Shown here: positions 52,757-64,000 of the stretch, one piece after another | How the letters are laid out: the number at the start of each line of letters is the position of its first letter | Numbering within the stretch: the first letter of the stretch is position 1 | Assembly: GCA_963662265.2 (NCBI GenBank) | Contig: CAXXHA010000032.1 | Span: 96,001-160,000, forward strand | Direction of reading: 5' to 3' | DNA length: 64,000 bases | DNA from: Spirochaetia bacterium | GTDB lineage: Bacteria; Spirochaetota; Spirochaetia; CADAEX01 | Program-made: the position numbers and the translations under genes | Notes under the pieces: model-generated | Databases searched by the model: none | Told to the model about the DNA's origin: nothing | Seen by the model: the letters and a program-made list of their open reading frames with translations, nothing else

Positions 52757-55216
52757 CTATTTCATATCAATTCCAAATTCAACTCGCCTGTTTTTCCACC
52801 AGATTGACTTGTCTTTTGTTGAAGTCACAGGTTTTTTCCCGCCGAAGAATTCAATTCTGATTCTGTCTTCAGGAATTCCCTCATCCATGAGTGCCTTCTT
52901 GACTGATAAGGCTCTTCTTTCTGTTAAAGGAATAAGTACTGTCTCCTCCCTTGCCTCTTTATTGCTTTTTGAACTGTGAAAAACATTAAGAGCATGACCT
53001 TCAAGCACTATAGTATAATCGGGATATTTTTTTGAAAGGGATGCAACCTTCCTTATCGACTTCATATTCTCATCTCCGGCTGATTTTCCCCTTGAATAGA
53101 GACTATGTTTGTACGCCGAGAAAATTATATTGGGAACTTTTATGTAATACCTTCCGTTTACAAGTTCTGCAATTATATCGATTGTAAAATCACCTTCGCA
53201 TACAGCTCTGTTTCCGTTCATATCAACAAGCTCAAGTGAAGCGTCAAATCTGCTGCCTGACTCAACTTCATCAGCTATATAGTCCTCTCCGTAAAGCACA
53301 ATACCTTCATCAGAAAGTCCGCTGCCGTCAGCCTCATCCTCTTCCCCGCTTTCATCCTTAAGCTTCAGTATCCACTTATAAATACCGCTATCATCCTTAA
53401 CATTTGGATCTATATAAACCTGGCCGTCAAGAACTTCTCCGTTAACTGCAAAAGGTGTTGCAGTTATTACAAGATCTGTTTCAGGAGGAGTAAGGTCGTA
53501 GAAGTATTTAAAGAAATGCTGTGATTTGCTTCCGTTTTCATAAGCTGCGGTAAATGATACGTTATAATCACCCTCTTCAGCCTCATCCCTGCTTCCGGGA
53601 ATTATAATCATTTCAGGAAAAACACCTTCACCGGATTCTTCATAAATAACATTACCGTCTGTATCACTTACCTTGAAAGACCACATTTCAATTCCGCCTG
53701 TTGAATCAGATTCGACTTTGAATGCAGCAATACCATCAATCTGTTTTTCAATCATTTCCGCGCCTGGAATATTAACAAGCTGGGCTTTCTTGTCAGCCCG
53801 GTCAATGGTCAGTTTCTTTTTTTCAGGCACATAGGGATTACCTGCAAGATCTTCAAAATATGTTTCAAGGTAGTAGTCGCCGTCAGCAAGCTCTTTTCCA
53901 TCTTCATCAGTACCGTCCCAGACAATAAGAGAAGTTGTTTCCTCGCTTGTCATTTCACCTATTGAATTGCCATCGCTGTCAGTTATCTGCCCTTTCCATT
54001 TGACAATCTTGTTTGATTTCATAGAAATTTCAGTAGTATCCCTGTTTCCGCTTCCGTTAGGAGAAAATACAGGATTGCTTACCTTGAAATCAACAACAGG
54101 AGCAGTGGTATCCAGATACACAGTCTCTGTTTTCACAATCCTGGCACCGTTTTCATATTCGCTTGAAAAGCCCAGGGTATATGAACCCTGCGGAAGTTTT
54201 TCCCCCTGCTCTCCACGGCCGTCAATTACAGCCTCATAAATTCCAGGCTCTGCACCCTTGTCCGATAGGATCACATTGCCTTTTGAATCTGCCATTGAAA
54301 CAGACCAGCCGACAAATCCTTCTTCGGTTTTCTGTCCGAATGTTGCTATTATAGTATCTTTATTCCCATCATTGTTCGGTGAAAAATATGTATCTGTAAG
54401 TTCAAAAACCACATCTGCAAGAGTTGTATCAAGGATAAATCCGGATAATGATTTTTCCTCCATTTTATTACCGGCAAGGTCTGTTGAATTAATTCTGTAA
54501 CTGTATAATCCGTCAGCTGCAGGATTTCCGTTATTATCAAGCCCGTCCCATTCCACATTGGGAAGAGAAGTGTTTTCCCACCTGAAAGTCTTTACAACAT
54601 TACTGTCCTCATCAAGCATCTCCCCTGTCCATAGGGATTCATCTGTGGATTTTTCCTGCTTTATAACAAGAACATCAAGATTTCCATCGTTATTCGGTGA
54701 AAAAATCACCTTGTCAGGTTTTACAAGTTCAACTGACGGGGGAGCAACATCAACAACAAAGTCATCAAGTGCAACATCGTCAATATTTCCTGATGAATCC
54801 TTGACCCAGAGTTCCACATTATAAATACCGTCAGGAACCTTGTTGCCTTCTGTATCAAACCCGTCCCATTTCACTGACTTTTCAAGTGTAAATTCTGAAT
54901 ATTTTGTAAATATCCTTATAAACCAGTTAATATCAGATTTTTCAGTTTCAATAACTTCCGTTATCACATCGCCTGATGAGTTTTTGATTCGGAGCCCGTA
55001 TTCAGGTACATACCCCTTCTTGCTCTTAACATAAATCTTTACTTTGAAATCAAGTTCAGATGAATCCTGAACACCATTACCGTCAGGAGAAATATACTGT
55101 GTTCCCGAAGTAGCAACTTCAAGATCAGGAACTTCCTTGTTTCCTCCCGCGGAAATACTGAATGTCATAAAAATAAATAGACATAAAGCAATCACTATTA
55201 TTCTGAAACTTTTCAA
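52757..55216 (-). CDS. OmpA-family protein with repeated FlgD Ig-like domains (spirochaete type)
   Basis: Repeated FSPNxDGxxD and WDGxDxxG..DGxY motifs; C-terminal LEGHA...LTERRA...NRRVEF. Confidence 0.88.
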   Translation of the reverse strand: MKSFRIIVIALCLFIFMTFSISAGGNKEVPDLEVATSGTQYISPDGNGVQDSSELDFKVKIYVKSKKGYVPEYGLRIKNSSGDVITEVIETEKSDINWFIRIFTKYSEFTLEKSVKWDGFDTEGNKVPDGIYNVELWVKDSSGNIDDVALDDFVVDVAPPSVELVKPDKVIFSPNNDGNLDVLVIKQEKSTDESLWTGEMLDEDSNVVKTFRWENTSLPNVEWDGLDNNGNPAADGLYSYRINSTDLAGNKMEEKSLSGFILDTTLADVVFELTDTYFSPNNDGNKDTIIATFGQKTEEGFVGWSVSMADSKGNVILSDKGAEPGIYEAVIDGRGEQGEKLPQGSYTLGFSSEYENGARIVKTETVYLDTTAPVVDFKVSNPVFSPNGSGNRDTTEISMKSNKIVKWKGQITDSDGNSIGEMTSEETTSLIVWDGTDEDGKELADGDYYLETYFEDLAGNPYVPEKKKLTIDRADKKAQLVNIPGAEMIEKQIDGIAAFKVESDSTGGIEMWSFKVSDTDGNVIYEESGEGVFPEMIIIPGSRDEAEEGDYNVSFTAAYENGSKSQHFFKYFYDLTPPETDLVITATPFAVNGEVLDGQVYIDPNVKDDSGIYKWILKLKDESGEEDEADGSGLSDEGIVLYGEDYIADEVESGSRFDASLELVDMNGNRAVCEGDFTIDIIAELVNGRYYIKVPNIIFSAYKHSLYSRGKSAGDENMKSIRKVASLSKKYPDYTIVLEGHALNVFHSSKSNKEAREETVLIPLTERRALSVKKALMDEGIPEDRIRIEFFGGKKPVTSTKDKSIWWKNRRVEFGIDMK

Positions 55217-55475: not shown

Positions 55476-56438
55476 TCAATATTTAAATTCATATATATTA
55501 CGATCAACAATGTTTATCAACTGTTTTCCTTCAATATATGCTTTAATGTTTTGTTCAATAATAGAAAGAGTTTTATTTAATGTGTGAGGAAGAAAATCAT
55601 GCCCTGCAATATGAGGAGTTATTATTATGTTTTTAGTATTCCATATTTTATGGTTACGAGGAAGAGGTTCATTTTCAAAAACATCTAATGCTGCTCCTGA
55701 TATTTTATTGTTTTCAATCGCTTCACATAAAGCATTAATATCGAGAGTATTACCGCGGCCTACATTTATCAATACAGCATCCTGTTTAATTCTGGAAATC
55801 ATTTCTTTATCCATAATATTTATTGTCTCTGGAGAAGACGGTAAAGACATGGAAACAATATCAGCACGATGTATAATTTTTGCCAAATCATTGAAAGAAT
55901 ACATCTCATCCGCATATTTATTGTTTTTATTAATAGACCTTCTAACACCAATAATGTGTACACCAAAAGCTTTAAGCATTTTTGCATACTGAGTTCCAAT
56001 ATCTCCCATGCCAAGTATCAAAACAGTAGCATCCTGAAGCATTTTTTCGTTGCCTTCATCATTCCATAAACAATTATTCTGGTTGTCCCTGTAAATATTC
56101 AGTTTTTTATACAGAGATAAAGTTAAAGCTAACATAAACTCTGACTGGGCTTCCCCATAAGCACCGCTTGCATTAGTAACAATAACACTATCTTTCAGAA
56201 TATTATCCTTAAGATATGCATCAGCGCCTGCAGTAATCAGTTGGATCCATTTCAGCTTTTCTGCGTGCTCCAATAATTCTAAAGGTGGATTCCCAATTAT
56301 TATTTTCGAATTTGATATTTGATCGTGGTTTATATTGCAATCTGATGCAAACTCAAAATCTATATATTTTTCAAACTGAGAAAGCTTATTTTTCTGGGAA
56401 AGATCAAGAGGAATAATAACAAGAACTTTGGTTTTCAT
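55476..56438 (-). CDS. D-2-hydroxyacid dehydrogenase family protein
   Basis: Motifs ILGMGDIG, INVGRG, LDVFENEPLP and ITPHIAG. Likely start MKTKV at 56438. Confidence 0.9.
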   Translation of the reverse strand: MKTKVLVIIPLDLSQKNKLSQFEKYIDFEFASDCNINHDQISNSKIIIGNPPLELLEHAEKLKWIQLITAGADAYLKDNILKDSVIVTNASGAYGEAQSEFMLALTLSLYKKLNIYRDNQNNCLWNDEGNEKMLQDATVLILGMGDIGTQYAKMLKAFGVHIIGVRRSINKNNKYADEMYSFNDLAKIIHRADIVSMSLPSSPETINIMDKEMISRIKQDAVLINVGRGNTLDINALCEAIENNKISGAALDVFENEPLPRNHKIWNTKNIIITPHIAGHDFLPHTLNKTLSIIEQNIKAYIEGKQLINIVDRNIYEFKY

Positions 56439-56486
56439 AACAATCCTATGCAATATTTAATATTATTTCACATTAAAAATACTTAT

Positions 56487-57335
56487 CTACAATCCCAGAT
56501 AATAACCTTTGTTAAGAAAATCTTCCATTTCCTTAAGTGTATCAATTGCTCTGGAATGATCAAGCTGTGCTATTGCTGCAGAAATATAATTTATCAGACA
56601 CATGGGAGCAACATAGGAATTTTTGAATGAAATGCCGCCGACACTGCATGGTAAAATGATATCACCGTAATTTTCTATATCTGAAATATTCTGACTTGTA
56701 AACAGAATAACCTTAACATTTCTTTTTCTTAGCCATAATATTAAATTTGCGGTTGTTTTCGAGTATCTTGGAAATAAAAAAGCTACACAAATATCCTGTT
56801 CATTACAGCCGATCAATTCTTCAGGAAAGATCATTCCGACAGACTGTACTAACCTTACATTGGGTCTTATCTGACCAAGACGGGAGGTCATATAATGAGC
56901 TAAGGCAAAAGAACTTCTCATACCAAGAACATAAACATTTCTTGCATTACTTACTTCATCAATAGTAACAGATAAATCTTTTTGAGATATTTTTGTCATT
57001 GTAGTTGTAATATCGGCTATATCATTCTGCATAGTATCCATAAGTAACTGGTCAGGTGTCCCTGTTTCGATTTTGTTAATCAATCTCTCTGGCAGACTTG
57101 CTTTTGTAACCAGTCCTTTCTGGACCTCCTTCTGCATATCGGAATAGCCATTATATCCCATCATTCTTGCAAAACGGATAATCGTAGTCGTACTTACACC
57201 GATTTTCATTGCAACATCATCTAGAGTGGAAAAGGCAAATTTATCTGGATTATCAATAAAATAATTAGCTACTGTTTTTTGTGAATACGTAAGATCATTA
57301 AACCGCTCTGCAACTTTATTTGAAAAATCAGACAT
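56487..57335 (-). CDS. RpiR/MurR family regulator (HTH + SIS)
   Basis: Motifs VSTTTIIRFARMMGYNGY, LGMRSSF and FPRYSK. Confidence 0.92.
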   Translation of the reverse strand: MSDFSNKVAERFNDLTYSQKTVANYFIDNPDKFAFSTLDDVAMKIGVSTTTIIRFARMMGYNGYSDMQKEVQKGLVTKASLPERLINKIETGTPDQLLMDTMQNDIADITTTMTKISQKDLSVTIDEVSNARNVYVLGMRSSFALAHYMTSRLGQIRPNVRLVQSVGMIFPEELIGCNEQDICVAFLFPRYSKTTANLILWLRKRNVKVILFTSQNISDIENYGDIILPCSVGGISFKNSYVAPMCLINYISAAIAQLDHSRAIDTLKEMEDFLNKGYYLGL

Positions 57336-57435: not shown

Positions 57436-58707
57436 TTAAAATCTTACAATACTGCTAATATCTGTCATCTGACAACCGGGGGTTTCATCACATGCTCTCA
57501 TCAGAAAATTAAGTTTATCTATCCTCTCTCCCGACCGAGGTGCTCCATTCTTCTGAAAAGCAACTTCAAGACCGACAGAAATATCCATTACAATATCACC
57601 GACAACTCCTCCTGACCTTCCTGAAGGAACTGTAAACATATTGTGTTCATTTGCAATTTTATGTGTTTCAAGAGCCTCTGTTATAGTACCGACCTGATTT
57701 GGTTTCAGGACAAATCCTTCAGCTGCATTAGTTTCTATTGCCCTATAAAGCCTTTCTTTGTTGGATGCTATAAGATCATCACCAATAATAATTGTTCTTT
57801 CAAGTTCTCTAACAGCCTTAGTATAATTTCCCCAATCATTTTCATCCAGAAGATCTTCTATAAAAACTATAGGGAACTGTTCTGTCAGTTTTTTTGTATA
57901 GTCAATTATTGTCTGGGCTCCAACCCTTTCATCCTTAAGCAGATATGTGTTTGTTTTTGCATCATACATTTCACTTGAAGCACAATCAAGAGCAAATGCC
58001 ACTTTATCATGATACCCGCATTCATCAACTGCATCCTGCATTAATTGCAATGCAATTACAGGATCATTTGTTGGAGTTGCCCAGCCATAAGATCGGGCAA
58101 CCTGAGGTGTTTTCCCCATATATTTTTCAATTATTACCCCAAGTTTACTAAAAACCTTTACAGCTATTTCAACAGCTTCATATATAGTATCAGCTTTATA
58201 GGGGACAATAAGGAATTCGTTAAAAGCAAGGGTAACATCCCCATATTTACCGCCATTTATAACATTAAAAGATGGAACTGGAACTGTCCTGATATCTCTT
58301 CCGCAGAGATATCTATAAGGAGTCATTTTTGAAATCTGAGAAGCTGCTCTAAGTGCAGCTATAGAAGTACTGCAGATAGCATTTCCCCCAAGCACGCTTT
58401 TATCAGAGGTACCATCCAGTTCAATCATTTTTCTGTCAAGAGCTTCCTGGTCCTGAATATCCATACCTATCAATGCAGGAGCAATAATTTTCTTCACATT
58501 TTCAACTGCTTTATGAACACTTAAACCATCATACTCAGAAGGATTATTATCTCTCAGGACAAATGATTCATATTTCCCGACAGAACTCCCTGTCGGAGAA
58601 CTTCCATAACCCTTAAATCCATTTTCTGTAGTAATATCAACTTCAACCATAGGACGGCATTTACAATCTATTATCTGCCTCGCTGTTACATTTTTAATCT
58701 TTTCCAA
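57436..58707 (-). CDS. Enolase-fold protein with a non-canonical active site
   Basis: Full-length enolase-like layout (LDCASSE, IED, GDD, KPNQVG) but GDEGG is ARSYG, NGGxH is NGGKY and SHRS is SGRS. Confidence 0.88.
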   Translation of the reverse strand: MEKIKNVTARQIIDCKCRPMVEVDITTENGFKGYGSSPTGSSVGKYESFVLRDNNPSEYDGLSVHKAVENVKKIIAPALIGMDIQDQEALDRKMIELDGTSDKSVLGGNAICSTSIAALRAASQISKMTPYRYLCGRDIRTVPVPSFNVINGGKYGDVTLAFNEFLIVPYKADTIYEAVEIAVKVFSKLGVIIEKYMGKTPQVARSYGWATPTNDPVIALQLMQDAVDECGYHDKVAFALDCASSEMYDAKTNTYLLKDERVGAQTIIDYTKKLTEQFPIVFIEDLLDENDWGNYTKAVRELERTIIIGDDLIASNKERLYRAIETNAAEGFVLKPNQVGTITEALETHKIANEHNMFTVPSGRSGGVVGDIVMDISVGLEVAFQKNGAPRSGERIDKLNFLMRACDETPGCQMTDISSIVRF

Positions 58708-58728: not shown

Positions 58729-60130
58729 TTATTTTTCAGGTACATACATTATGTTAAAATCACAGAGGTTTGTTCCTGTATTCCCTGTGAAAACAGTATC
58801 TTCAAGTTCTACCAATGCTTCATAACAGGAATGCCCCCTGAGTGATGCATGTATATCAACATTTTTTTCCAAAGCTGTTTTATAAGTTGTTGAATCAGTT
58901 ATTCCTCCAGCTATATCAGCTGTTCCATCAGTACCTTCAGAATCTATAGATAAAAGGCATGCACCTTCTGTTTTTGCAGCTAAAAGGGCAAAACTCAAAG
59001 TTTCTTCCTGTCCCCGGCCCGCCATGGCCTTTAATGGTATTGTTATCCAGAATCTTTGTAGTTGCCTCACCTGATGAAAGAATTACACAGGGAGCCTTAA
59101 CAGGATTTCCATATTCCTGTATTTCCCTTGCAATAGATGCAAATATTGTACCTACATCCCTGGCTTCTCCCTCCAGAAATGAGGTAAGAATTACAGCATT
59201 AATACCCATATCCTCTGCAATATGTTTTGCATATATACATGAATCAGGAAGTGTATTCAGAAGGTAATATGTGTTATCAGGGAATGCTTTTGGAGTTTCC
59301 CCTTCAGGACCAGCATTCATAAGGTAATCAACAACATTTTTAGGAAGCCTGTCAGCCACATCATAATCACGGATAACAGCTCTTGCATCATCAAGAGTAG
59401 TCATATCAGGCCCCATAGGTGTACTTTTATATGCTGCATATGGAATTCCAATATCGCCTGTTGCTGCAGATCCTACAGCATCACTTATCCCGAACCCTAT
59501 CAGTTCAGCACCTCGTTTCTGTATCCTTTTAGCAAGCATTCCCCCGTTAAACTGGGATATATGTCTTCTTATGGAATTTATTTCATAAATATTGGCACCT
59601 GACTTAAGCATTACATCAGTCACTGCAATTTCATCATCCAGAGATATTCCATCTATAGGACAGCTCATCAGGGCAGAACTGCCTCCGCTTATAACAACAA
59701 TAAAAAGGTCATCAGGTCCTGAATTATCCACTATTTCAAGTATTTTTTTGCAGGCATTATAGCCAGCTTCATTGGGAAGGGGATGCCCCCCCACATAAAC
59801 TTCTGTTTTATTAAAAACATCTGTTTCTTCTGCGATTTTTACAATAGCAATACCACGGGTAAGCTTATCCCCAAGAATCTCATCTACTGCCATTGCCATA
59901 TGGTTACAGGCTTTCCCCGCACCCAGAAGATATATATTTTTCTTTTTTGAAAGGTCCCAGCTTTTTGTACCTATATGGAGAATATCTCCATCCAGATGCA
60001 TGATGCTTTTAATCCTTTCTTTAGAATCAAGTTTCTGAAGCGTTTTTTCAGTAATGTCCAGTACTATCTCCCTGGATTTTTTATCTCCATGTGATAATAT
60101 CTGTTCTCTGTTGCGTATTTTGACCGACAT
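58729..60130 (-). pseudogene. Glycerate 2-kinase-like (MOFRL/TtuD family) kinase with one +1 frameshift
   Basis: GAGKA, GHPLP, ISGGSSAL and ISDAVG lie in one ORF; SEGTDG and TGNTGTNLCD in the next frame. Removing one C from the run at 59012-59015 gives GHGGPGQEET. Confidence 0.85.
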
Positions 60131-60244
60131 TTCAAACTCCTTCGGTTTATTTATCATGTTTTGTATATATTACTATATGTTGCAGTATTAACTACTTTGA
60201 TATAAAACATATTAACTATACTTCTATATCATACTATGGTTATT

Positions 60245-61540
60245 TTACGTTTCTGACAGTTCAGGCAAGCTCTTCTGAGACTGCGGATAAAATAGAATCT
60301 TCGGATTGTCCTTAGCAGACAAATCTACCGCTTTATTAATCATATCATTAACATTTTCAGCCGGAATCATGTGCAGTTTTTCTATTTCAGATTTTGAAAT
60401 ATTGGGAGAATATACAACTATATTAACATTTTTCTTAAGTATCTTTGAAAGCAATAATGAATGGTCCATTTGGATCCTGTAATTATCTTTCAGATAATCA
60501 ATAACCCCCTCAAGAGAAGGAGACTGTTCAAATGGCTTCATCATATCTGGTGAATTTATCCCCTCCCGACATTCACAGTAAAGAGCAACTGTAATTGAAT
60601 CATCGAGTATATCTGTAAGTGCTATAAGAGCCTTTACTGACTGATAAAAATCAATATTAAGAGGACTACCAGGTGTTGTTACAATGATATCAGGTTTCTT
60701 GAAACTGTTCTTGCAATACTTTCTAAGATAATTCACCGCTGTCTTATGTGATAAAAGCATTGGCCCTGAAAAAACTGCGGCTGTCTGGTTAACAGAATTC
60801 TGAACAAAATTAACACAAAAGTCGAGACGGAAAAACTCTGCTGTTTCTATCATGTCATTACTTACAGGATTTCCCTCCAGACAACCAGGTACGGCCTTTT
60901 CCGAAGAAATCATTTTAACTGAATGATTTGTAAGAATAGTTTTTTCAGAAGAAATTCCAGGCAATACAGATTTTCTACCTCCTGAAAAACCTGCGAATTC
61001 ATGCGGTTCCACTTTTCCAATTGAAACATGGATATCACATTCATAAGCCCTTTTGTTAACCTCAACAGGAGTACCAAATGAGGTTATACCCAGGTTTATC
61101 AGATTACTGCTATCAAAAGGGGTATGGTTTTCTATTCTCATCTTGGAATAAAGTTCCGGCCCGATTATTTTCAGCATTTCCTCTTCTGTTGCCTCCCTGT
61201 GGACACCAAGAGCAACAATAAAAAGTATATCTGACAATGTTATTCCACCGTCTGTCAACTCCTTTACTATTATTTCAGCAGCGCTTTGTGTCGGTACATT
61301 TCTGGTTGCATCTGAGACAATTATACATGCACTTTTTGCATTACGTTCAAGTACAATATCCTTAAGCCGCTTCCCCCCCAGAGGGTTATAAATACTGTTT
61401 AAAAATTCCTTTTCATTTATTGCAGTAATATCGCTATTTCCTGTTACCCCTGCAAAACATACTTCAGGAATTTCTATTGAGATTTTTTCCACTTCATCCT
61501 TATAATGAACTTTGTTATCAGCAATAGAAATAGAATACAT
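60245..61540 (-). CDS. larA: LarA-family (nickel-pincer) alpha-hydroxy acid racemase/epimerase
   Basis: Motifs DATR, ALGVHR, ENH, EPHEFAGFSGGRKS, NH and YQSVK. The substrate is not necessarily lactate. Confidence 0.88.
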   Translation of the reverse strand: MYSISIADNKVHYKDEVEKISIEIPEVCFAGVTGNSDITAINEKEFLNSIYNPLGGKRLKDIVLERNAKSACIIVSDATRNVPTQSAAEIIVKELTDGGITLSDILFIVALGVHREATEEEMLKIIGPELYSKMRIENHTPFDSSNLINLGITSFGTPVEVNKRAYECDIHVSIGKVEPHEFAGFSGGRKSVLPGISSEKTILTNHSVKMISSEKAVPGCLEGNPVSNDMIETAEFFRLDFCVNFVQNSVNQTAAVFSGPMLLSHKTAVNYLRKYCKNSFKKPDIIVTTPGSPLNIDFYQSVKALIALTDILDDSITVALYCECREGINSPDMMKPFEQSPSLEGVIDYLKDNYRIQMDHSLLLSKILKKNVNIVVYSPNISKSEIEKLHMIPAENVNDMINKAVDLSAKDNPKILFYPQSQKSLPELSET

Positions 61541-61617: not shown

Positions 61618-62166
61618 CTAAACATCCTCAGTAATAAGACCGGTATCTTCAATTTCATGATCAGATATACCAACAACGGCGGCTTCTTCGCCAGGTCTGA
61701 ATAAATCAAAGAGAATATTTCTCAATTCATACAAAGACATCACAGCAAAAGAAACAGAAACTGCAGCATATTTTACAGCATAAGGAAATCCCAGAGCGGG
61801 AGTTACCCTGCTACCTGATCTGATTATCATAAGTATACCGATGTAAAAAACAACAACAGATGCCAGAAACATGATAATCTGAACACTGATGTTCATTATA
61901 TGTTCCACTTTTTTGGGGAACATCTGCTTGAATACAACTATGCTTACATGTTCTCTACGAACAGCAATATAGGAGGCGCTCAAGAGACAAAACCATACCA
62001 GCAGTATTTTTAACAATTCTTCTGACCAGGTCAGCGAACTGTTTAATACATAACGGCTGAATATATGGAGCAGAGCAATTGCCAGCATACATATTCCTAT
62101 AGCTATTATCATAATCATAACTATTCTGCCTGTCTTTCTAACAACATTATTAAGAGTGTCTAACAT
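61618..62166 (-). CDS. TRAP transporter small permease (DctQ)
   Basis: Four TM helices; motifs SRYVLNSSLTWSEEL and HVSI. Confidence 0.9.
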   Translation of the reverse strand: MLDTLNNVVRKTGRIVMIMIIAIGICMLAIALLHIFSRYVLNSSLTWSEELLKILLVWFCLLSASYIAVRREHVSIVVFKQMFPKKVEHIMNISVQIIMFLASVVVFYIGILMIIRSGSRVTPALGFPYAVKYAAVSVSFAVMSLYELRNILFDLFRPGEEAAVVGISDHEIEDTGLITEDV

Positions 62167-62189: not shown

Positions 62190-63266
62190 TTATTTTACAC
62201 TTTTAGCTGTGTCTGCTTTTACAGCTTCAATCCCTGCGATGAATTCATCTACAAATTCACTTCCAATTTCTTCTTTAACCTTATCAGAAACAACTGGCTG
62301 AGAAACTTTTTTTATAGCTTCAAGATTTGCCAGTGTCAAAGAATTGACCTTCATACCTTTATTGGTGAGCTGTTCTACAATAAGTGCTTCCCTGTTCGCA
62401 TTGATAAAACGGCTGTAATTCTGTCCGAGAATTGCACCTTTTTCAATGATTTTCTGATATTCTCCTGGAAGAGAGTTAAACCATTTAAGATTTGTCACAA
62501 GTGGCATAGCATCATAAATATGGTTGGTAAGAGATACATAATCCTGAACTTCATACATGTTTACTTCCCATATATTTGCAAGAGGATTTTCCTGTCCATC
62601 TACAATTTTCTGTGACATTGACAAATAAAGTTCAGACCAGGGAACAGGTGTCGGATTTGCTCCGAGTGCAGAAAAATTTGCCATGTGCATTGGAGCTTCC
62701 ATTGTTCTTATTTTAAGTCCTTTAAAATCATCTATTGACTTGATAGGTCTTACATTATTTGTCGCATGCCGAAAACCATTTTCCATATAAGCAAGACCTT
62801 TTAAACCTGATTCTTCGAGTGTATCCATCAGATCTGAACCTACTTTACTGTCAAAAGTAGCCCACGCCTGCTGGTAGTTATCAAAAAGAAAGGGAATATC
62901 AAGTACTGCAAATTTTTTATCAAAAGTTGTAATAGGTCCGATTGATGCAGTAGCCATTTCAAGAGTACCATTCTGAACCTGTTCAACTGATTCGATTTCA
63001 GCTCCCAGCTGGCTGTTGGGATAAATTTTGACCTCAACCTTTCCATCTGTTTTGTCTTCAATATATTCTTTCATAACACCCAGTCCTAGAGTCTGCGGGT
63101 GATCAAGAGAATTGCAAGCAGAAATTCTGATTTCAAAGGATCCAAGATCTTCAGCAGATCCTGCTTCTGCTTTTTTAGAATTTCCACCGCATGCTATTAT
63201 TGAACACATAACAAGCAGCACCATTATCACCTTAAGTGATTTCATAATAAAGTTTTGTTTTTTCAT
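62190..63266 (-). CDS. TRAP substrate-binding lipoprotein (DctP)
   Basis: Lipobox IIAC; motifs YPNSQLG, ENGFR, GLKIRTM and DGQENP. Confidence 0.92.
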   Translation of the reverse strand: MKKQNFIMKSLKVIMVLLVMCSIIACGGNSKKAEAGSAEDLGSFEIRISACNSLDHPQTLGLGVMKEYIEDKTDGKVEVKIYPNSQLGAEIESVEQVQNGTLEMATASIGPITTFDKKFAVLDIPFLFDNYQQAWATFDSKVGSDLMDTLEESGLKGLAYMENGFRHATNNVRPIKSIDDFKGLKIRTMEAPMHMANFSALGANPTPVPWSELYLSMSQKIVDGQENPLANIWEVNMYEVQDYVSLTNHIYDAMPLVTNLKWFNSLPGEYQKIIEKGAILGQNYSRFINANREALIVEQLTNKGMKVNSLTLANLEAIKKVSQPVVSDKVKEEIGSEFVDEFIAGIEAVKADTAKSVK

Positions 63267-63289: not shown

Positions 63290-64000
63290 TTAATAACCCA
63301 TCATTTTTGGCAGAAACAGACTTATTTCTGGAACAAAAGTAACGAGTAACAAAACACTAAAAGTTGTCAAGATAAACGGGATTGCCTCTTTGACAGTATC
63401 TTCGACCCTGACATTAGCAATAGGACTTGTAACGAACAATGTAATTCCGAATGGAGGAGTTGCAAGTCCAACTACAAGATTGACACATATAACTACTGCA
63501 ATGTGCAGCGGATGAATACCAAGCTTCCAGGCAATAGGAGCAATTATGGGAGCAAGTATTACAATAGATGCATAATCATCCATAAAACATCCTGTTATCA
63601 GGAGAAGAATATTTACCATTAAAAGGAACATCCATGGGGGTATTGAAGACAATGGCTCAATTACATAAGAGAGAACCTGCTCATTTGCAATTGCCCAGGC
63701 CATAACACTTCCGGCACCAGCTAGAAGGAGCACAAGACCCGATGTTAAGGCGGCTTCCTTGAATATTTCAGGAATATCTTTAAGCTTAACAGACTTATTT
63801 ACAAAGAAACCAAGAAATGCACTATATAAAACAGCCACTGCAGAGGCCTCTGTAATACTGAAGACTCCACCGAATATCCCACCAAGAATTATTACAGGAA
63901 GCATCAGTGCAGGAAGAGCTTTTTTTGCAGCAACAATTTTTTCTTTTAATGAAGTTTTAGGGAAAGAGGGATAATCTCTTTTTTTGGATACAAAGTGTGC
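63290..64000 (-). CDS. TRAP transporter large permease (DctM); 5' end outside the window
   Basis: Motifs PVIILGGIFGGVFSITEA and GLATPPFGITLF; the frame stays open to the window edge. Confidence 0.92.
   Translation of the reverse strand, partial: AHFVSKKRDYPSFPKTSLKEKIVAAKKALPALMLPVIILGGIFGGVFSITEASAVAVLYSAFLGFFVNKSVKLKDIPEIFKEAALTSGLVLLLAGAGSVMAWAIANEQVLSYVIEPLSSIPPWMFLLMVNILLLITGCFMDDYASIVILAPIIAPIAWKLGIHPLHIAVVICVNLVVGLATPPFGITLFVTSPIANVRVEDTVKEAIPFILTTFSVLLLVTFVPEISLFLPKMMGY

Follow-up and report, generated by a model that had tools for sequence, protein, structure and literature searches.

The locus described here lies towards the end of a 64,000-nucleotide stretch of a Spirochaetia bacterium genome (assembly GCA_963662265.2, contig CAXXHA010000032.1, positions 96,001 to 160,000), which is referred to as the window. 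One array of genes on its minus strand encodes the TRAP transporter subunits DctM, DctP and DctQ, a LarA-family racemase, a kinase, an enolase-like protein, an RpiR regulator and a D-2-hydroxyacid dehydrogenase. The enolase-like gene and its partner kinase were the subject of this analysis:

57436-58707, minus strand: enolase-subgroup paralogue, 423 amino acids (open reading frame listing, Pfam, NCBIfam, alignments, AlphaFold2 model)
58729-60157, minus strand: partner kinase of the glycerate-2-kinase family, DUF4147 and MOFRL domains (Pfam/NCBIfam, tblastn)

Judged from its sequence and those of its relatives, the enolase-like protein represents a real, conserved subfamily that is mis- or under-annotated and has a previously unreported gene partnership. 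The full-text literature searched, to which subscription-only papers and supplements did not belong, described neither this clade nor a kinase-enolase-like module.

The reading frame of the enolase-like gene starts with a TTG codon and is intact. Its product matched the Pfam domains Enolase_N (142 bits) and Enolase_C (216 bits). Against the NCBIfam enolase model TIGR01060 it scored 367 bits, which is above the curated equivalog cut-off (300 bits) and approximately half the hidden Markov model score of the canonical enolase encoded on another contig of the same genome (723 bits). The cut-off of TIGR01060 fails to separate the enolase-like clade from enolase proper. For comparison, relatives were retrieved from a collection of 5.8 billion proteins, where thousands matched; all conservation counts given below refer to the 120 best of them (62-100% identity). 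In public records, these are named enolase or phosphopyruvate hydratase, and a protein atlas searched with the enolase-like protein returned enolase clusters only. The MR_MLE_C domain (PF13378) matched with 28.5 bits, below its gathering cut-off of 29.4 bits, and this match overlapped that of Enolase_C; by this measure, the protein does not belong to the mandelate racemase/muconate lactonising enzyme subgroup. An AlphaFold2 model built from 15 family members (predicted local distance difference test [pLDDT] 88, predicted template modelling score [pTM] 0.87) was compared by Foldseek with more than 30 solved enolases, which gave template modelling (TM) scores of 0.90-0.93. The protein has the enolase fold, i.e., an N-terminal capping domain followed by a C-terminal modified TIM barrel. 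It shares this two-domain fold with enolase (EC 4.2.1.11; TIGR01060; M. jannaschii MJ0232, PDB 2pa6), at 36-38% sequence identity.

Active site residues were assigned from HMMER alignments to two solved enolases, 2pa6 (M. jannaschii) and 1iyx (E. hirae), and from a MAFFT alignment with the canonical enolase of the same genome; for orientation, residues are also given in the numbering of yeast enolase (Glu211, His373, etc.), although the alignments were made with other enolases. The metal ligands Asp241, Glu284 and Asp310, the base Lys335 (yeast Lys345), Glu164 (Glu168), Arg364 (Arg374) and Lys386 (Lys396) are kept, each in 120 of 120 relatives. Ser365 (Ser375), which is also kept here, is Ser in 93 and Ala in 27 of them, and Ser42 (Ser39), located in the loop of the second metal, is found in 117. 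The protein possesses the three carboxylate metal ligands on barrel strands 3, 4 and 5 and the lysine base on strand 6 that characterize the enolase subgroup, as well as the residues that bind phosphate and carboxylate (Arg374, Ser375, Lys396, Glu168 and Ser39).

In contrast, the features of enolase proper, namely the general acid Glu211, His373, His159 and Gln167, are lacking. The general-acid motif VGDEGG reads VARSYG, which places Ser206 at the position of Glu211 (119/120, the remaining one being Ala) and Tyr207 at that of Gly212 (117/120). SHRSGET is replaced by SGRSGGV, with Gly363 at the position of His373 (120/120), GGxHA by GGKYG, with Tyr155 at that of His159 (117/120), and QEF by NEF, with Asn163 at that of Gln167 (120/120). 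The position of Asp210 is variable, and no longer conserved, within the family. Tyr46 takes the place of the histidine in the catalytic loop (GxHEA; 84 Tyr, 23 His and 13 Phe). Further differences from enolase are the change of DSRGNP to DCKCRP (Cys15 in 114 and Cys17 in 116 relatives) and an extra, practically invariant cysteine, Cys242 (119/120), which directly follows the first metal ligand where LDPATSE has become LDCASSE. The pocket that would accommodate C3 of the substrate is, therefore, predicted to be rebuilt: two side chains are smaller (Glu211 to Ser, His373 to Gly), one is introduced (Gly212 to Tyr), and one position is free to vary (Asp210). An altered reaction or an altered substrate is what such a combination would naturally suggest.

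An earlier reading of the window, made from the nucleotide sequence alone (the sequence-only reading), had listed by eye the retained metal ligands, base, Glu168, Arg374/Ser375 and Lys396, and the changes of Glu211 to Ser, His159 to Tyr, His373 to Gly, Gln167 to Asn, and DSRGNP to DCKCRP. All of these were confirmed by the alignments to 2pa6, 1iyx and the genome's own enolase, which added the loop change to Tyr46, absent from that list. That reading would have failed had the substitutions not recurred in homologues; in the 120 relatives they are essentially fixed. Its further argument, that an intact frame with changes clustered at the active site speaks against decay, was also borne out. Decay of the gene was rejected because the open reading frame is intact, because 117-120 of 120 relatives share the changed residues, which are conserved across many phyla, and because a separate canonical enolase is present in the genome.

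Directly upstream of the enolase-like gene lies the partner kinase gene, which in the window appears as two overlapping open reading frames (58937-60157 and 58729-59070). The split results from one extra base in a run of G near position 59012 (window 59005-59020), and the tblastn junction falls between GHGGPG and QE. The extra base is absent from four of four independent contigs of public sequencing runs (two samples, two studies), which is why the kinase gene is considered intact in the organism; a broken kinase, or pseudogene, was rejected and the frameshift attributed to an assembly error. When genomes were scanned (one per species), 286 pattern matches were found, 275 of which encode relatives of the enolase-like protein. 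The best 80 loci were kept, and all neighbour counts over these are lower bounds because contig ends truncate many of the loci. In each of the 80, the C-terminal part of the kinase is encoded on the same strand immediately upstream; the N-terminal part was found in 78, the other two being cut by contig ends. In 27 of the 80, kinase and enolase-like parts form one open frame, and Pfam resolves single proteins of 895-983 amino acids with the order DUF4147-MOFRL-Enolase_N-Enolase_C (895-905 amino acids in loci such as L059 and L048); the cluster representative P0122 has the same architecture. Thus, unlike housekeeping enolase, which is not coupled to a kinase, the enolase-like gene is always coupled or fused to one. 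The kinase-first order of the fusions and the obligatory presence of the kinase indicate that the substrate of the enolase-like protein is probably the product of the kinase.

The kinase belongs to the same family, and has the same domain pair, as class II glycerate 2-kinases (GK-II, MOFRL; TM1585, PDB 2b8n; PH0495, PDB 1x3l). Both DUF4147 and MOFRL are present, and the NCBIfam glycerate-2-kinase models scored it with 143-173 bits, well below the curated equivalog cut-offs of 550-670 bits. The sequence-only reading had proposed a 2-phospho acid as the substrate of the enolase-like protein. The obligatory glycerate-2-kinase-family partner, a decisive piece of context that it had overlooked, backs this proposal, yet the same partner also strengthens the case for the ordinary route from glycerate via 2-phosphoglycerate (2-PG) to phosphoenolpyruvate (PEP).

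Whether carriers of the enolase-like gene also possess a canonical enolase was assessed by searching 48 carrier genomes with the TIGR01060 profile. A canonical enolase (586-720 bits) was present in 40 of them (split in two cases), and replacement of the housekeeping enolase was mostly rejected, as these 40 have both forms. The paralogue was the only form in the remaining eight, which comprise six Oscillibacter/Dysosmobacter-like genomes and two Treponema metagenome-assembled genomes. Among the 41 genomes of the genus of one such carrier (G010, Oscillospiraceae), five encode a full canonical enolase, one a partial one, three the paralogue only, and 32 show no TIGR01060 match at all. Because of these 32 genomes, the missing enolase is a trait of the lineage and not a sign of replacement. 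Lower glycolysis in most genomes of this genus seems to be devoid of enolase. The five-genome genus of one Treponema carrier (G019) is ambiguous: the canonical form occurs alone in two genomes and the paralogue alone in two others, and the fifth contains neither of them.

A tree of 143 full-length cluster representatives (150 were listed, P0121-P0270) resolved the enolase-like family as a clade with a support of 96. This clade is nested in a larger, well-supported one, whose 11-14 representatives without exception lack Glu211. Altogether, Glu211 is missing from about 30 of the 143 representatives nearest the query, with Ser, Gly, Ala, Cys, Tyr, Lys or other residues in its place; the metal ligands and the lysine base are kept in these. 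Among the 150 listed, many other enolase-like lineages are likewise devoid of Glu211 or His373 but retain metal ligands and base. Many lineages covered by the enolase family model are probably non-canonical. The nearest relatives in the tree, other clades without Glu211 (41-46% identity), include fusions of a His_Phos_1 domain to an enolase-like part (P0125, P0129 and P0130). They likewise lack Glu211 and His373 and keep the metal ligands and the base lysine, but their partner is a phosphoglycerate-mutase/phosphatase-like domain rather than a kinase, and the CKCR and SYG signatures are missing from them apart from a partial match (SSYGY in P0125). Proteins with this N-terminal histidine-phosphatase domain (P0125, P0129, P0130 and P0150) are 612-625 amino acids long; the RHG motif of the domain is lost in P0150 and P0151. 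The presence of such domains ties the lineage to phospho-acid chemistry. No description of His_Phos_1-enolase-like fusions was found in the literature searched.

The other members of the gene cluster, the last of which heads the operon beyond the end of the window, are the following:

55476-56453, minus strand: D-isomer-specific 2-hydroxyacid dehydrogenase, last gene on the strand (Pfam/NCBIfam)
56487-57335, minus strand: RpiR-family regulator (HTH_6 and SIS domains; Pfam), directly downstream of the enolase-like gene
60245-61540, minus strand: homologue of LarA-family nickel-pincer 2-hydroxyacid racemases/epimerases, 431 amino acids (Pfam Lar_N and LarA_C)
61618-62166, minus strand: TRAP small membrane subunit DctQ (Pfam)
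62190-63266, minus strand: TRAP solute-binding protein DctP (Pfam)
63290-64000, continuing past the window end, minus strand: TRAP large membrane subunit DctM (Pfam)
G000:C32:160642-161775 (L086:642-1775), minus strand: ornithine-cyclodeaminase/mu-crystallin-family gene

Neither the LarA homologue nor DctP yielded a lead to the substrate. The best NCBIfam match of the LarA homologue was the LarAH6 malate racemase (312 bits, cut-off 500), and it stayed below every curated LarAH cut-off; LarC, which is needed for the LarA cofactor, is encoded in the genome. The closest solved relative of DctP, 4P47, is ligand-free. The ornithine-cyclodeaminase-family gene passed the cut-off of NCBIfam NF004848 (a model named "tyramine oxidase subunit B") and scored 184 bits, below the cut-off, against the 2,3-diaminopropionate enzyme SbnB.

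The 80 loci span at least eight phyla and stem, e.g., from Bacillota, Planctomycetota, Desulfovibrionaceae, Thermoleophilia and Acidobacteriota, and also from Synergistaceae, Treponema, Collinsella and Bifidobacterium. Cultivable carriers include Faecalicatena contorta, Wukongibacter baidiensis and Paenibacillus rhizosphaerae. Apart from the kinase gene, the ornithine-cyclodeaminase-family gene was encountered in 55 loci (median identity 65%). TRAP genes were less frequent (DctP in 35, DctM in 31 and DctQ in 25), and the LarA homologue was present in 26, in two of which it is merely 28-32% identical. Regulators of the RpiR type were found in 45 loci (within 10 kb), of the GntR/FCD type in 33 and of the AraC type in 17. 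A glutamate-dehydrogenase-like gene occurs within 10 kb in 18 loci (including L018 and L042), and in L018 it lies directly downstream of the enolase-like gene. M20 hydrolases of two types were found in 10 and 8 loci, respectively, one type being close to the "selenium metabolism-linked" YgeY family (304 bits, cut-off 321). The glutamate-dehydrogenase-like and M20 neighbours hint at an amino acid, or an N-acyl or N-carbamoyl amino acid, as the source for the pathway. Homologues of the D-2-hydroxyacid dehydrogenase are occasional members of the cluster (7/80). Rarer still were a Na:alanine symporter (5/80), a CN-hydrolase (4/80), DUF3100 (3/80), a 3-hydroxyisobutyrate/tartronate-semialdehyde-reductase-like gene (3/80) and pyruvate kinase (1/80).

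With its two-metal site, phosphate binders and lysine base retained, the protein can probably still bind a 2-phospho carboxylate and form an enediolate; up to that step, it would work like enolase. With about even confidence, we propose that it is the neofunctionalized lyase half of a module that would phosphorylate a 2-hydroxyl group and then eliminate, its 2-phospho acid substrate differing from D-2-PG at C3. The product of the kinase is judged not to be D-2-PG because a normal enolase is already available to most carriers; a kinase making D-2-PG would need no co-inherited enolase of its own. The substrate should differ at C3 because it is the C3 pocket that appears rebuilt. In such a module, a small 2-hydroxy acid would be imported by the TRAP transporter, or be derived from an amino acid via the ornithine-cyclodeaminase-family enzyme; the LarA-type racemase, where present, would set its configuration, and the kinase would phosphorylate its 2-hydroxyl group. 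The resulting 2-phospho acid would be bound by the enolase-like protein on two Mg2+ ions, Arg364/Ser365 and Lys386, and Lys335 would take the C2 proton to give a metal-stabilized enediolate. Departure of the C3 group would then yield an enol phosphate, either PEP or a C3-substituted PEP usable by pyruvate kinase, and any proton required could be supplied by the retained Glu164 and/or by Tyr207. Candidate substrates with a bulkier C3 are 2-phospho-2,3-dihydroxybutanoate, 2-phosphotetronates and 2-phosphotartrate; alternatively, the leaving group could be one that does not need a glutamate as the acid (amino, sulfo or thiol). Comparable to the latter is phosphosulfolactate synthase (ComA) of the coenzyme M pathway, which employs a Mg-stabilized enolate of a 2-phospho acid to interconvert PEP plus the C3 substituent with a 3-substituted 2-phospholactate, and whose anionic leaving group needs no Glu-type acid. 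The likeness is a mechanistic analogy only, since ComA belongs to an unrelated protein family. Candidates that would fit both the transporters and the amino-acid-type neighbours are C4 2,3-dihydroxy acids, acids of the tartrate type, and 3-hetero-substituted lactates (isoserine, sulfolactate, mercaptolactate), none of which is favoured. Sulfite exporters or sulfite reductases were not found in the annotated loci, which leaves sulfolactate without support from gene context.

The logic of 2-O-phosphorylation followed by an enolase-type step is the same as in routes that combine glycerate 2-kinase with enolase. In the known glycerate, serine and tartrate routes, 2-PG proceeds to the housekeeping enolase (cf. 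PMC2063504). Here, in contrast, a dedicated and catalytically altered enolase-like gene travels with, or is fused to, the kinase. About as likely as the proposed elimination itself is that this lyase would be the first functionally distinct enzyme family inside the enolase subgroup and that, paired with (and often fused to) a new 2-hydroxyacid 2-kinase, it would define an unrecognized catabolic route, to which the ornithine-cyclodeaminase-family enzyme, the LarA racemase and TRAP or amino-acid transporters would also belong. No fewer than 275 genomes from many phyla would carry such a route, which may produce PEP from an acid of the lactate type that is substituted at C3 (amino, sulfo, thio or C4 dihydroxy).

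The strongest competing explanation, which we consider less likely, is that the protein is simply an unusual but genuine enolase. It would convert D-2-PG to PEP with another proton donor and, beside a glycerate 2-kinase, channel imported or serine-derived glycerate to PEP. Several observations weigh in this direction and against a novel substrate. The TIGR01060 cut-off is exceeded, and none of the residues for metal, phosphate or the base function is lost; Tyr207 or Glu164 may stand in for Glu211 on ordinary 2-PG. Alignments to PH0495 (257 bits) and to TM1585 (219 bits) cover nearly the whole kinase; TM1585 was deposited as "glycerate kinase, putative" and is reported to have been assayed as a glycerate 2-kinase. 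The 2-hydroxyacid dehydrogenases, the tartronate-semialdehyde-reductase-like genes and the single pyruvate kinase, neighbours by which the loci resemble known glycerate routes, would suit plain glycerate metabolism. No dedicated enzyme for a product other than PEP recurs in the loci. The eight carriers without another enolase, and the genus of G019, which is split between the two forms, would also be accounted for. Furthermore, some LarA homologues are known to racemize glycerate (PMC11770544). On the other hand, the loss of both Glu211 and His373 and the fixation of their replacements speak against a genuine enolase. The kinase scores far below the glycerate-2-kinase cut-offs, a canonical enolase already exists in 40 of 48 carriers and in the genome of the window, and the absence of enolase in the genus of G010 is a lineage trait. 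In yeast enolase, exchange of Glu211 for Gln reportedly costs about five orders of magnitude of activity.

Racemization or epimerization of a 2-phospho acid, which the sequence-only reading had suggested, is clearly less probable. Lys335, together with another base (e.g., Tyr207), would in this case exchange the C2 proton, and nothing would be eliminated. The product, e.g., D-2-PG formed from L-2-PG, would be passed to the housekeeping enolase, which most carriers could indeed supply, and the active site, which keeps the base and the enediolate-stabilizing apparatus but has lost the acid for the leaving group, is what such an enzyme would require. However, no second base could be verified for the opposite face of C2, and eight of 48 carriers have no canonical enolase. 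Gene context argues mildly against a racemase as well: in 26 of 80 loci, a LarA-type racemase, putatively for the unphosphorylated acid, is already encoded, which would render a second inversion redundant there, and the protein is fused downstream of the kinase, as in a consecutive step, with no further dedicated enzyme. It is highly improbable that the protein is catalytically dead, its role being confined to binding a phospho acid or to assisting the kinase in a structural or regulatory manner: the lost general acid and the kinase fusions seen in 27 of 80 loci would be compatible with this role, but metal ligands, base lysine, Glu164, Arg364 and Lys386 that are invariant in 120 of 120 relatives are not expected of a non-catalytic protein.

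Because proteins of this type pass the curated cut-off, enolase annotation may be wrong or untested in hundreds of genomes, and metabolic reconstructions may assign an enolase to organisms that have none, a point of importance for lineages such as the genus of G010. To our knowledge, the enolase subgroup is treated as isofunctional, a statement not contained in the passages of two papers found by that term. If the enolase-like protein does act on another 2-phospho acid, the one-function status of the subgroup would be broken. The family would then represent a natural experiment in retuning the enolase active site after removal of the general acid, and anaerobes of gut and sediment would prove to harbour a widespread kinase-lyase module that has been spread horizontally.

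An Rfam scan of the window end and of seven loci detected one tRNA and no other family. Adjoining the cluster, on the minus strand (52757-55216), is a gene for a protein of 819 amino acids with repeated FlgD-Ig/Big-like domains and a C-terminal OmpA domain, which is probably a surface protein unrelated to the cluster.

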